Shown here one piece after another: positions 23,336 to 26,806 of a stretch of DNA of 28,025 nt. The notes beneath the pieces were generated by a model. The model was not told the origin of the DNA. It did not search any database and saw nothing but the letters and a program-made list of their open reading frames with translations. The position numbers and the translations under genes were made by a program. The DNA is taken from the NCBI GenBank assembly GCA_964353385.1, contig CAYGVP010000001.1, positions 1 through 28,025 on the forward strand. Reading direction: 5' to 3'. Position 1 is the stretch's first letter; each line of letters begins with the position of its first letter. The DNA is from an uncultured Dehalococcoidaceae bacterium (GTDB lineage: Bacteria > Chloroflexota > Dehalococcoidia > Dehalococcoidales > RBG-16-60-22).

Positions 23336-24046
23336 ATGGAAGTAATCAGACACAAGGAAATGAACAAAATAAATAACAAACTTCTATCAGCAGTCTCCCA
23401 TGAGTTACGTGCCCCGCTGGCGGCGATCAAGGGCTACTCAACGATGTTACTCGACTATTTACCCAAGCTTACGGCTGAAGAAACCAAGGAATATATTCAA
23501 TCTATAGATAATGCCACGGACAGGATGACCCGGCTCGTTGATGACCTTATGGACACGTCACATCTGGAGGAAGGAAGGCTCAACCTGGAAAAAACCCCAG
23601 TTGATATGGAAATCCTTATCAAAGCAACTGTTAAAGAAGCCGAAACCAGAACCAACCATCATGAAATCTTAACAGCGCTGAACCATAATTTGCCCAGAGT
23701 AAACATCGACCCAAAACGTATCCAGCAAGCGCTGGATAATCTAATCGATAATGCTGCCAGACTATCACCTCAAGGGACAGAAATTTTAATATCAGCGACC
23801 GCTGATGATAAAGAACTAGAGATAGGCGTTATCAGCGGCGACCCGGGCATACCTGACAGCGAGTTTTGCAGTATTCCCGAACTTATGTGTAGAATGGGTA
23901 AAACAACCTCACCGAGAGATAACGGCATGAATCTAGAATTATATATTTGCCAGCGGCTGATTGAAGCTCATGGCGGTCGAATATGGGCAGAGAGTATCTT
24001 AGGGAAAGGAACCAGTATTAAATTTACACTTCCATTAACTTCGTAA
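23336..24046 (+). CDS. Sensor-less histidine kinase-like protein with intact H-box but degenerate ATP-binding domain
   Basis: VSHELRAPLAAIKG; N-box DNLIDNA; G1 reads SGDPGI, F box IPELMCR, G2 GMNLEL; AHGGRIWAES..GKGT retained. Confidence 0.85.
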   Translation: MEVIRHKEMNKINNKLLSAVSHELRAPLAAIKGYSTMLLDYLPKLTAEETKEYIQSIDNATDRMTRLVDDLMDTSHLEEGRLNLEKTPVDMEILIKATVKEAETRTNHHEILTALNHNLPRVNIDPKRIQQALDNLIDNAARLSPQGTEILISATADDKELEIGVISGDPGIPDSEFCSIPELMCRMGKTTSPRDNGMNLELYICQRLIEAHGGRIWAESILGKGTSIKFTLPLTS

Positions 24047-24097
24047 AAAGTGTTAAAATATCGTCTTGCATATATTTTAAAACATGCCAAATTGGTT

Positions 24098-24103
24098 TAT
24101 AAT
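24098..24103 (+). promoter_or_regulatory. -10 element upstream of the OmpR-family regulator
   Basis: Perfect TATAAT in an AT-rich intergenic region; the -35 is weak (TTTTAA at 17 bp). Confidence 0.4.
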
Positions 24104-24145
24104 GTTTGATTGGAAGGTAGAACAGAGCAAAAACAGAGGGTTTAT

Positions 24146-24844
24146 ATGCCAAAAAAGAAAGCTCTAATACTGGTAGTGGATGATGACATCCGCATGTTGC
24201 GCATGATGAAGCGTATGCTGGAGCTGGAAGGTTTTGAAGCTACCACGGCTAACTGCGGCGAAGCTGCCTTAAAAACATTTGAAAAAGAAACCCCTGCGCT
24301 CGTGCTGCTTGATATTATGATGCCGGACATGGATGGATATGTAGTATGCCGACGTATTAGAGAGTTCTCCCAAGTCCCGATTATTATGGTTACCGCCAGA
24401 GGCGAAGATAAAGAAAAGGTGGAGGGCTTAAATATAGGCGCCGATGATTACGTTACCAAACCTTTTTCCGCCAGTGAACTGGCTGCCCGCGTCCGGGCGG
24501 TTCTGCGGCGTGTTAGCAGCCAAGAAATAACTCAAGAAGCTGTTTTTCGCTACAAGGATATGGTAATCGATTTTACATCACGGCGGGTTTTAGTTAATAA
24601 CCAGGAATTAAAATTAACCTCAACCGAATATAAGATGCTGTCTTACATCTCGCTTAACGCCGGGCGCGTGGTCACGCCGGACCAGCTATTGAACAAGGTC
24701 TGGGGTGAGGAATATGTTGGCGCGGCACACCTGCTCCAGGTAAATATCGCCAGATTGAGGAAAAAACTGGGCGATGATGCCAAGAAACCTGACTATATCC
24801 AGACCCGCCCGGGTATCGGATATATCATGTCAAAACTGCCTTAA
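24146..24844 (+). CDS. OmpR/PhoB-family (KdpE-like) response regulator
   Basis: ILVVDDD, LVLLDIMMPDMDG, GADDYVTKPF..EL.ARV; winged helix LTSTEYKML..GRVVT..LL..VWG..V.IARLRKKL..YI.T.PGIGY. Start set at the ATG at 24146. Confidence 0.95.
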   Translation: MPKKKALILVVDDDIRMLRMMKRMLELEGFEATTANCGEAALKTFEKETPALVLLDIMMPDMDGYVVCRRIREFSQVPIIMVTARGEDKEKVEGLNIGADDYVTKPFSASELAARVRAVLRRVSSQEITQEAVFRYKDMVIDFTSRRVLVNNQELKLTSTEYKMLSYISLNAGRVVTPDQLLNKVWGEEYVGAAHLLQVNIARLRKKLGDDAKKPDYIQTRPGIGYIMSKLP

Positions 24845-25082: not shown

Positions 25083-25190
25083 AACAATAGGGTAGATGGA
25101 GGGTTCTATTTACTTGAGGTGTAACTATTCTTAATAGGGACAAATTAACACAAGAGTATAACTTTACCCTCGGCTAGAACTGAAAAACAC

Positions 25191-25955
25191 ATGATAGAAA
25201 TTAAATTTAAAAACAACCGTGAAGAAGCAAATATAGCCGGGCGTTCCATCGCGGAAGCACGGGGGTTATATCAATCGGAGTTTGGCATCGCGGAAAAAGC
25301 CGTCGCCGTATTGAACGGCGAGAAAATCGGCTCCGCCGCGGAAGCTTTTGCTATCCTGATGGATGACGATAATCTGGTATTCAAAACAGTAAAAGGCAAC
25401 AAAGCAATGTACCTAGTCGGCGCACTACTGCTGACAATGGCTGCCACCGTCGGGTTGTTCGCCTCCGGGTACACTAACGCTACGGCTACGATTAATGCAG
25501 GAATAGCAGACTATGATTTCGCCTTAGTTACGGCCAACACATCAAGTATACCTTCATGGACCGCTCACGGGTTGCAGAAAAATTCCACCGGTTCCGGTAC
25601 CCTCTTCGATATTAATACTCAAACATCAGGTTATACCGGCGATATCATCGCTACTATTTCTCTGGCTAATGTCGACTCTCTCATCAAGGTCTACCGCAAT
25701 CTGACGCTATCCATAGAGGTCCGGGATTCTTTAAACAATCTGATGGATATTAATAGCGACAATATTTCAGATATTAACGACTATACTCTCCTGACGCTGG
25801 AAAACAGCGTGGTGTCATTATATATCGAGCAAAACGCCGCGAGTATATATACCGTTAAACTCAGGAGCGGCTACTATATCTGCAACATCGCTCAAAGCAA
25901 CTGGTCCAGCACTGATGGGACACCATTACTGTACTGTGAAGTTGCCCAGAGGTAA
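25191..25955 (+). CDS. Hypothetical protein: N-terminal ubiquitin-like (beta-grasp) domain, TM/signal helix, extracellular beta-rich domain
   Basis: aa 1-69 IEIKF..AGRSIAEAR..F.I..AVAVLNGEK..L.DDD.LVF..KG; aa 73-93 hydrophobic; Thr/Asn/Ser-rich beta-type remainder. The SD is weak. Confidence 0.7.
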   Translation: MIEIKFKNNREEANIAGRSIAEARGLYQSEFGIAEKAVAVLNGEKIGSAAEAFAILMDDDNLVFKTVKGNKAMYLVGALLLTMAATVGLFASGYTNATATINAGIADYDFALVTANTSSIPSWTAHGLQKNSTGSGTLFDINTQTSGYTGDIIATISLANVDSLIKVYRNLTLSIEVRDSLNNLMDINSDNISDINDYTLLTLENSVVSLYIEQNAASIYTVKLRSGYYICNIAQSNWSSTDGTPLLYCEVAQR

Positions 25956-26032
25956 TTTCTCCCTTCTTAAGACGGACGGGCAATATCTCACCATCTTTTT
26001 ATCTTAACGTCAATCCTGTCTAATTGATACCC

Positions 26033-26098
26033 TTGTGATGTTTTTGTGAGGTATTGTGAGATGTTTTTGATAACTTTGTGAGTCTATTTGAGTATTGT
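26033..26098 (+). promoter_or_regulatory. Five-unit phased TTGTGA array plus -10
   Basis: TTGTGA 26033, 26044, 26054; TTTTGA 26065; TTGTGA 26076; TATTGT at 26093 begins 11 bp after the last repeat. Confidence 0.75.
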
Positions 26099-26121: not shown

Positions 26122-26367
26122 ATGATTCTGGTATGGGATAACATTAAATCCTTTCAGCGGCATCTTGAAGATATGAGGTCATTCCAAAACTCGCACATTC
26201 ACAACACACCGTTAGTGGACTTAAAAATGCTCAAGGATATGCCTATGCCGTTCGATGTCACAATACCCCGTGAAACAGGTCTCATTAAAAGCGTTTATGA
26301 TGCCAGAGGTAAATTGATACTCGTCCCTATATGGAGAGTTGACCTTTCTAGATGCTCACAGAATTAA
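26122..26367 (+). CDS. Small hypothetical protein (81 aa)
   Basis: ATG at 26122 after a GGGGGG SD-like run; open and co-oriented with the downstream receiver; no family recognised. Confidence 0.55.
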   Translation: MILVWDNIKSFQRHLEDMRSFQNSHIHNTPLVDLKMLKDMPMPFDVTIPRETGLIKSVYDARGKLILVPIWRVDLSRCSQN

Positions 26368-26383
26368 ACAGGTGATATAAGAA

Positions 26384-26806
26384 TTGGCGACTGGAAATGC
26401 GACTCTACCCGATGTTAAAGAACGCCAGCGTATCCTGGTAATAGACAATAACCAGGATATGTTGATGTTACTTAATCGCACGCTTGAACTAGAGGGCTTC
26501 GATACCGTTATCTCTGTTGATTACGATGAAGCATTGGCCATGCTGGATACAATCAATCCAGATATGGTCATCATGGATACCTATTTGCCGGATATCGATA
26601 GTTTGAGAATCCTGGATATCATTAGAGAACGTTCCAACGTACCTATCATTGTTATCACCGCGGATAACGAACTGGAGACGCTAAAGACAGTCTTCGCGCA
26701 CGGCGCCGATGATCTTATACGCAAGCCATTTGGGATAAAACCGTTTATAGCGAGGATAAAAGCTAAGCTAAGGCGCTACCGGAGAGAAATCCCCGCACCT
26801 TCTTGA
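26384..26806 (+). CDS. Stand-alone OmpR-type receiver domain
   Basis: ILVIDNN, MVIMD (phospho-Asp kept), VITA, GADDLIRKPF..FIARIKAKLRR; TTG start with SD AGGTGA; no DNA-binding domain. Confidence 0.88.
   Translation: MATGNATLPDVKERQRILVIDNNQDMLMLLNRTLELEGFDTVISVDYDEALAMLDTINPDMVIMDTYLPDIDSLRILDIIRERSNVPIIVITADNELETLKTVFAHGADDLIRKPFGIKPFIARIKAKLRRYRREIPAPS

Follow-up and report, generated by a model that had tools for sequence, protein, structure and literature searches.

Within a 28,025-nt stretch of contig CAYGVP010000001.1 from an uncultured Dehalococcoidaceae bacterium (GCA_964353385.1; 226 contigs, 70% complete), hereafter the window, the gene at positions 25191 to 25955 encodes a protein in which a ubiquitin-like β-grasp domain precedes a signal-type hydrophobic helix and a jelly-roll domain related to CanA and CanX, the subunits of the protein tubes (cannulae) of thermophilic archaea. 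Taking sequences, structure models and published precedents together, we consider that this protein is probably a donor-strand fibre or tube subunit, processed by a SipW-type signal peptidase, likely dependent on calcium and carrying a cytoplasmic ubiquitin-like pre-domain. Of this reading, the folds and the homology are observed, as are the conserved architecture and signal motif and the operon that links a paralogue to a peptidase. No description of a ubiquitin-like domain ahead of a signal sequence was found in the literature searched, in agreement with a first-pass annotation of this DNA, made by a model from the sequence alone, which knew of no described protein with this architecture. 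The parts of the gene are as follows.

25191-25955, + strand: whole gene ('type-1' paralogue), 254 amino acids plus stop with an ATG start; β-grasp, signal/transmembrane helix, candidate donor arm and CanA-like jelly-roll.
25191-25385, + strand: ThiS/MoaD-like β-grasp, residues 1-65, supported by the model, Foldseek, VIA-align, weak Pfam ThiS matches and the ratio of nonsynonymous to synonymous substitution rates (dN/dS).
25386-25409, + strand: basic juxtamembrane stretch, residues 66-73, similar to a signal-peptide n-region; includes the non-conserved Gly69.
25410-25463, + strand: h-region/transmembrane helix, residues 74-91, ending T-G-G-(V/I)-F-A, with predicted SipW-type cleavage after Ala91.
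25464-25523, + strand: flexible N-terminal arm of the predicted mature protein, residues 92-111, candidate donor strand.
25524-25952, + strand: jelly-roll homologous to CanA/CanX/Hyper2, residues 112-254.
25746-25781, + strand: D-x-N-x-D-G-x-x-D-x-x-D loop, residues 186-197, candidate EF-hand/dockerin-like calcium site.

When the whole protein was compared with Pfam and NCBIfam, no significant family was matched. A search of about 5.8 billion proteins recovered 63 full-length relatives at 40-80% identity, nearly all of 250-265 amino acids; the named ones came from metagenome genomes of Dehalococcoidales or Chloroflexi. When cluster representatives were searched exhaustively, 147 relatives emerged. 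The four-part architecture is kept in more than 100 full-length homologues, the named ones nearly all from Dehalococcoidales metagenome genomes, and one homologue carries the automatic UniProt name 'Ubiquitin-like domain-containing protein'. The distribution is narrow: counting the genome studied here, a match was found in 2 of 151 genomes across the class, in 19 of 41 relatives' genomes and in 13 of 17 other species of the same genus. A full-length AlphaFold2 model, built on 32 homologues, had a predicted local distance difference test (pLDDT) score of 83 and resolved the four parts. Residue conservation is given below for 32 homologues.

The C-terminal domain of the model is a β-sandwich (residues 112-253) with pLDDT above 90, containing two cysteines, C231 and C249. 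The six best Foldseek matches in the PDB were headed by CanA (7uii, E 9.6e-6), followed by CanX (9h8b), Hyper2 (9bab) and then the archaeal bundling pilin AbpA, at E values of 1e-5 to 4e-4. VIA-align, which is independent of Foldseek, gave Z scores of 12.1 with CanX (9h8b) and 11.6 with Hyper2 (9bac), aligning 140-145 of approximately 148 residues; any other match to this domain reached at most Z 6.9. A profile of 47 family members also detected CanA (E 5.4e-5) and CanX (E 4e-3) among PDB sequences, through a match that spans only a 63-76-residue core by way of a central V-x-L-A-N-A-x-x-L..Y..L motif. Judged by model and profile, the C-terminal domain is a bacterial relative of CanA and CanX in the TasA superfamily, which agrees with the first-pass suggestion of a surface or fibre subunit. 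Pfam Peptidase_M73 (TasA) gave no match, and both structure and profile place the protein closest to CanA rather than to TasA or AbpX.

Homologues of CanX have been reported only in Pyrodictiaceae (Nat Commun 2025, PMC12518558), and relatives of AbpX, another family of the same superfamily, have been noted in Chloroflexota (10.64898/2026.01.04.697558). With the present family, the range of the cannula (CanA/CanX) proteins, which in publications is limited to the hyperthermophilic Pyrodictiaceae, also takes in Dehalococcoidales, mesophilic bacteria of sediments. With CanA and CanX of Pyrodictium abyssi and Hyper2 of Hyperthermus (PDB 7uii, 9h8b, 9dlo, 9bab/9bac; PMC12518558) the protein shares not only the jelly-roll fold and the sequence profile, but also a predicted Sec-type signal followed by a flexible N-terminal arm, and an acidic mature protein. 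In contrast to these proteins, its host is bacterial. It further differs from CanA and CanX in having an inserted EF-hand-like loop and a cytoplasmic β-grasp before the signal, and in the dedicated SipW-type peptidase to which one paralogue is linked; the published cannula loci are said to have no such enzyme. The polymer predicted for it may be either a tube or a thin fibre.

Two features of the predicted mature protein (residues 92-254, 163 amino acids) bear on how it might assemble. The first is the arm of residues 92-111, which has pLDDT values of 54-70 and no secondary structure in the model. In a structural alignment of model residues 82-254 with CanX chain residues 1-148, it aligned with the N-terminal arm of CanX, and by this analogy it may serve as a donor strand. 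The disordered arm published for AbpX (10.64898/2026.01.04.697558) resembles it, since the arm here is likewise disordered in the monomer model. The second is the loop at residues 186-197, in which N188 and D197 are present in all 32 homologues, D186 in 30, D190 in 22, G191 in 21 and D194 in 22 (with N in 10). Four family members weakly matched Pfam Dockerin_1 over this loop, and its sequence suggests that it may bind calcium. Calcium-assisted assembly has been published for CanA and AbpX; the loop, together with an isoelectric point of 4.2 for the mature protein, would fit that precedent. Mature AbpX homologues are acidic as well. Because it is small, the mature domain would be a tractable candidate for a calcium-triggered self-assembling material.

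The N-terminal domain shows the order beta-beta-alpha-beta-beta-(short helix)-beta over residues 2-65 of the AlphaFold2 model. Folded alone on 35 domain sequences, residues 1-70 had a pLDDT of 85.7. Foldseek matched the domain to ThiS (3cwi) with a template modelling score of 0.72, and VIA-align gave Z 8.6, with a root-mean-square deviation of about 2 Å over 62-67 residues and ThiS, MoaD and ubiquitin as the top matches. Pfam ThiS was matched weakly by 17 of the 35 domain sequences (best E 4.3e-5). Because the domain superposes on ThiS, MoaD and ubiquitin and gives these weak Pfam matches, we assign residues 1-65 to the β-grasp fold, which the first-pass annotation had read from the sequence pattern of residues 1-69. 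The hydrophobic helix and β-rich two-cysteine domain that it placed next were likewise found in the model (residues 72-91, and residues 112-254 with pLDDT above 90).

Four lines of evidence argue that the upstream frame is truly coding. Alignments with more than 60 homologues (40-80% identity) begin at residue 1, and the architecture, whose conservation the first-pass annotation had proposed to check, is conserved. The alternative start, Met73 (ATG 25407), which the same annotation had flagged as a possible true start with an unconserved frame upstream, is methionine in only 5 of 32 homologues. In two pairs of moderate divergence, dN/dS was 0.19-0.27 over the β-grasp and 0.25-0.30 over the C-terminal domain, so the β-grasp is no less strongly constrained by purifying selection than the remainder of the protein. 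Finally, the type-2 paralogues described below have GGAGG-type ribosome-binding sites immediately 5' of the β-grasp ATG. Residues R24, N42, E51 and D60 of the domain are invariant. When the gene was compared with its closest relative (L022:8001-8765, 79% identity), dS was only 0.12-0.23 and dN/dS was about 0.5 gene-wide, which suggests relaxed or diversifying selection among close strains. Such selection is common in surface proteins.

The β-grasp is present on several deep branches of the subunit family, and it occurs in tandem in P0070 (two copies) and P0079 (three copies). Every β-grasp-bearing protein that we saw carries CanA-like cargo, with one exception, P0129. This 283-amino-acid metagenome protein joins a β-grasp and subunit signal to the second transmembrane helix and cytoplasmic tail of a SipW-type peptidase, and probably reflects either a deletion across the operon or a chimeric assembly of it. 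A search restricted to the β-grasp region for other architectures found close relatives only, and in an ESM Atlas feature search the matches, small ThiS-like proteins of phages, scored low (0.84). Among the stand-alone 74-amino-acid 'β-grasp only' proteins, P0201, the one checked, was set aside as evidence for a free domain because it sits at the end of a low-coverage contig. The domain is missing from L003 and L004 of the same genome and from L028, where the DNA upstream holds only a 73-bp intergenic spacer. Upstream of the 194-amino-acid subunit P0083, two assemblies (L026:1-128 and L027:1-285) hold an apparent β-grasp remnant with an M-I-E-I start and stop codons, suggesting natural loss of the domain. 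A tree of gains and losses forced at least 18 changes, a count that we did not use because many domain-less rows are probably truncated gene calls.

The segment between the two domains is the only strongly hydrophobic one in the protein (Kyte-Doolittle 19-residue maximum 1.98). It is preceded by positive charge, with K or R at position 71 in 30 of 32 homologues and at position 68 in 21 of 32, which argues for an N-in topology. Its end is highly conserved: T86 and F90 are each present in 31 homologues, G88 in 30 and A91 in 29, and after the predicted cut position 92 is aromatic or Ser in 30, G93 is kept in 30 and position 94 is aromatic in all 32. The family motif is T-G-G-V-F-A↓Y-G-F (the arrow marks the predicted cut), and the window protein itself reads T-V-G-L-F-A↓S-G-Y-T. 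Comparing by eye, we take the helix end to resemble G-G-G-T-W-A↓A-F of TasA and G-G-G-T-F-A↓Y-F of CalY, so the likeness to SipW-processed TasA/CalY signals that had been pointed out earlier extends to a conserved motif. The h-region and small-x-A motif are conserved and the arm that follows is disordered; however, the signal is internal here, lying behind a 69-residue domain. In relatives that have no β-grasp, an ordinary K/R-rich n-region comes before this same h-region and motif. From these sequence features, cleavage by a SipW-type peptidase is predicted after Ala91.

A candidate for this peptidase is encoded elsewhere in the genome, which contains three further family members on contigs C176, C134 and C27. 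The C176 member (L002) is a full-length, β-grasp-bearing paralogue, 44% identical to the window protein. The C134 member (L003), of 347 amino acids, combines a classical K-K-K signal with a homologous C-terminal domain and has no β-grasp. The C27 member has 171 amino acids. Nine bp after the 347-amino-acid gene on C134 lies the gene for a 312-amino-acid signal peptidase (L003:550-1488, - strand), which scored 80.5 bits on the archaeal-type model TIGR02228 (cut-off 51.85) and has the Ser (GSSMEP) and His (SHRV) boxes. It has two transmembrane helices followed by a cytoplasmic helical C-terminal tail of about 160 amino acids.

In four related genomes, the corresponding type-2 operon encodes, in order, an XRE-type helix-turn-helix protein, a soluble histidine kinase, an OmpR-type and a LuxR-type regulator, a β-grasp-bearing subunit of 251-255 amino acids, a larger subunit of 345-349 amino acids and a SipW-type peptidase. 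In eleven further family genomes, the match to the β-grasp subunit lies 0.8-1.2 kb from that to the larger subunit. Contigs C176 and C134 are almost certainly neighbours, which rebuilds the order LuxR-type regulator, β-grasp subunit, 347-amino-acid subunit and SipW-type peptidase in the genome studied here. Given the operon logic of TasA-superfamily fibres, cleavage of the β-grasp proteins by this peptidase would be the most economical reading. The first-pass statement that the window holds no E1, JAB or SipW gene stands for the window itself, and it does not extend to the genome, where a SipW-type peptidase lies beside a paralogue.

The arrangement recalls the TasA/CalY-SipW systems of Bacillus (tapA-sipW-tasA, sipW-tasA-calY) and AbpA/AbpX, which likewise combine two paralogous subunits with an archaeal-type signal peptidase. 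TasA/CalY-type signals share with the present one a G-G-x-aromatic-A end before an aromatic-rich mature N-terminus, and donor-strand assembly would be expected here too. The AbpX presequence is also long (54 amino acids; 10.64898/2026.01.04.697558). There are differences, however: no member of the TasA/CalY or AbpA/AbpX groups has been reported with a folded domain before the signal, and AbpX loci encode a 10-transmembrane-helix type of peptidase, in contrast to the two helices and ~160-residue tail found here. In the Dehalococcoidales, whose envelopes are archaeal-like, the presence of cannula-like subunits next to a SipW-type peptidase points to an extracellular tube or fibre that has yet to be described. 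The peptidase tail is conserved in L018-L021, giving total lengths of 310-326 amino acids, compared with about 190 for Bacillus SipW. We considered whether the β-grasp docks on this tail and dropped the idea, since the same tail is present in an operon (L028:3517-4401) whose subunits have no β-grasp.

From these observations we infer a topology, a cleavage site, polymerisation, calcium binding and a role for the β-grasp, which would combine as follows. The precursor would enter the membrane in an N-in/C-out orientation through its single hydrophobic segment, which would act as the signal sequence. The archaeal-type (SipW/Sec11-like) signal peptidase of the genome would then cut after Ala91, freeing the acidic jelly-roll protein of residues 92-254. 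The flexible N-terminal arm of the freed protein would donate a strand for head-to-tail polymerisation, probably helped by calcium at the EF-hand-like loop. Being folded and placed before the signal, the β-grasp could not pass through the membrane and would stay in the cytoplasm, first on the precursor and then on a 91-residue membrane-anchored stub, and one such stub would be made for each subunit exported.

Several points weigh against this reading. The window has no signal peptidase gene, and the window gene is a stand-alone paralogue. No match to TIGR04088, the SipW-cognate signal model, was found at E values up to 10 in the NCBIfam library, which should include it. Stable type II membrane proteins that are not cleaved normally have this layout too, with a folded cytoplasmic domain followed by a transmembrane helix. 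A homotrimer prediction with three copies of residues 92-254 gave a score of 0.00, which is no verdict and counts as evidence neither way, so that homology is left as the sole argument for polymerisation; the family members themselves are known from sequences and models. Furthermore, the β-grasp is absent (L028) or decayed (L026/L027) in otherwise intact operons and is therefore not essential to the system, and no partner for it was identified.

The β-grasp itself is most likely a sequence-specific cytoplasmic docking or control module that would help to handle the precursor or the stub, for instance in targeting, in the timing of export or in feedback to adjacent two-component regulators. A more specific version is that one precursor yields both an extracellular cannula-like subunit and, in a 1:1 ratio, a membrane-tethered ubiquitin-like stub that engages a cytoplasmic partner and thereby times or reports export. 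We put this forward tentatively, as a possibility that is more doubtful than the subunit assignment itself. If true, it would be a bacterial counterpart of ubiquitin-like transmembrane proteins, through a mechanism that has not been described for any Sec substrate. In any case, the architecture raises the question of how a domain that stays in the cytoplasm could exert control over a secreted, self-polymerising protein, whether over its export, its cleavage or its regulation.

Known β-grasp proteins offer partial parallels. The domain shares with ThiS/MoaD and with ubiquitin-like modifiers (SAMP, TtuB, Urm1) the β-grasp fold, an N-G turn and a D-x-L-x-F last strand. In contrast to them, it has no free C-terminus and no Gly-Gly, is fused to a transmembrane helix, has no linked E1 or JAB gene, and can occur in up to three tandem copies. 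RnfH (PDB 8ahx chain H) was among the structural matches, at Z 7.5-7.8. Other β-grasp domains at the cytoplasmic face of membrane machines are YukD and, in the type VII secretion protein EccD, a ubiquitin-like domain at the N-terminus. Like the present domain, those of RnfH, EccD and YukD are small and ubiquitin-like and are not conjugated, and they sit where a membrane or secretion component faces the cytoplasm. However, they belong to permanent subunits of their machines, whereas here the domain is the leader of a secreted substrate, and the likeness is structural.

Of the other explanations, the one that fares best is that the protein remains uncleaved as a type II membrane protein, with the β-grasp as a cytoplasmic stopper or docking domain and the jelly-roll on the surface, where it would either act as a cell-proximal base or nucleator for the polymerisation of subunits with ordinary signals, in a TapA-like role, or stand alone. 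Its layout, a folded N-terminal domain and then a transmembrane helix, is that of a classical signal anchor, and in the conserved operon a β-grasp-bearing subunit is accompanied by one whose signal is ordinary. Dehalococcoidia are not known to have a peptidoglycan wall, so a fibre would need an anchor in the membrane. In addition, in some relatives the gene follows that of a 1037-amino-acid CARDB surface protein. Nevertheless, the motif residues T86, G88, F90, A91 and G93 are equally conserved in β-grasp-bearing proteins and in relatives with ordinary signals, which would be unexpected without cleavage, and in most genomes the type-1 gene is solitary and has no neighbour that encodes a subunit with a plain signal. 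We therefore regard a permanent anchor as unlikely, and the cleaved subunit as the better account of the motif.

The neighbouring genes suggest another alternative. On either side of the gene, Pfam searches identified the following pairs.

23336-24844, + strand: two-component pair, a 236-amino-acid histidine kinase (23336-24046) and an OmpR-type regulator (24110-24844).
26122-26806, + strand: downstream pair, an 81-amino-acid open reading frame without a family match (26122-26367) and a receiver-only response regulator (26384-26806).

The upstream kinase/OmpR pair likely regulates the window gene. It also precedes the gene in L022 and L023. The kinase and the OmpR regulator ahead of the type-2 operon are its paralogues, at 31% and 44-46% identity, respectively. 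One could imagine that the β-grasp stub, or the uncleaved precursor, reports export flux to this adjacent system, so that production of the subunit keeps pace with its secretion, especially as the window kinase lacks a sensor domain and the β-grasp is under purifying selection. Against this, the relatives at 58-71% identity have no two-component neighbour, the orthologous kinase of L023 has PAS sensor domains of its own, and the operon without a β-grasp (L028) contains the same type of regulator. A feedback token of this kind therefore appears improbable, more so than the uncleaved anchor, and the cleaved fibre or tube subunit remains our preferred reading.

The first-pass annotation had further proposed that a deubiquitinase (DUB)-like protease removes the ubiquitin-like domain after Gly69, and had looked to linkage with the pilus locus as a family feature. 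A pro-domain that is cut by a DUB or JAB protease after Gly69, or is conjugated, or a prepilin-like processing with type IV pilus assembly, could draw on the K-G at positions 68-69 before the helix of the window protein, on the ThiS/MoaD-like fold and on the fact that the gene comes after a cluster of type IV pilus genes, both in the window and in its near relatives; it is nonetheless highly improbable. Position 69 is Gly in 10 of 32 homologues and a gap in 14, so Gly69 is not conserved, and in the absence of a conserved C-terminal Gly or Gly-Gly the β-grasp is not a conjugatable modifier. No Prok-JAB gene was found in the 70%-complete genome, and the only ThiF-family gene over the cut-off lies on another contig (C17), with none in the window. 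The prepilin N_methyl motif was matched by the genuine pilins encoded at this locus but not by this protein. It is thus very unlikely that the β-grasp is conjugated or is processed by a DUB or by PilD.

Linkage to the pilus locus did not hold up either. In relatives at 79% and 68% identity, the gene order is PilM/N, PilT, kinase, OmpR, the gene itself, the 81-amino-acid open reading frame and the receiver-only regulator. This linkage occurs only in relatives at 68% identity or more, and it is lost in relatives at 58-71% identity, in which the gene is flanked by the nuo operon and SDR genes, and genes for pili or regulators are not found close by. Linkage to the type IV pilus locus is thus a local feature and does not characterise the family.

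Some further features of these loci were noted. The window kinase consists of HisKA and HATPase_c only, with no sensor, and the kinase of the type-2 operon is also short (238 amino acids); the kinase at the same position in L023 has 641 amino acids, including its PAS domains. The order of the 81-amino-acid open reading frame and the receiver-only regulator is kept in L022 and L023, where the 81-amino-acid proteins are 56% and 35% identical and have an invariant C-terminal S-Q-N. In relatives at 58-63% identity, the gene lies just 3' of that for a surface protein of about 1040 amino acids with nine CARDB repeats (L005:6658-9771, L009:6149-9292).

The first-pass annotation had placed the gene behind a phased promoter; a brief look at this region showed two TGT[GT]A words at -160 and -141, and a scan with the sigma-70 consensus found no + strand promoter upstream of the gene. 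The 60 nt before the ATG (25131-25190) are largely conserved with L010 (71% protein identity), and a TATAAC hexamer lies 29 nt 5' of the start. In one metatranscriptome run, short contigs from relatives covered only positions 25737-26046 and none of the β-grasp, so that the start, strand and level of transcription could not be resolved from it. Finally, four metagenome proteins of the family (P0097, P0123, P0132 and P0076) have insertions of 200-380 amino acids inside the jelly-roll, or long C-terminal extensions. The inserts in this group appear repetitive and helical, with much Ala, Thr, Asp and Phe, and these proteins may be decorated or spacer-bearing fibre subunits.

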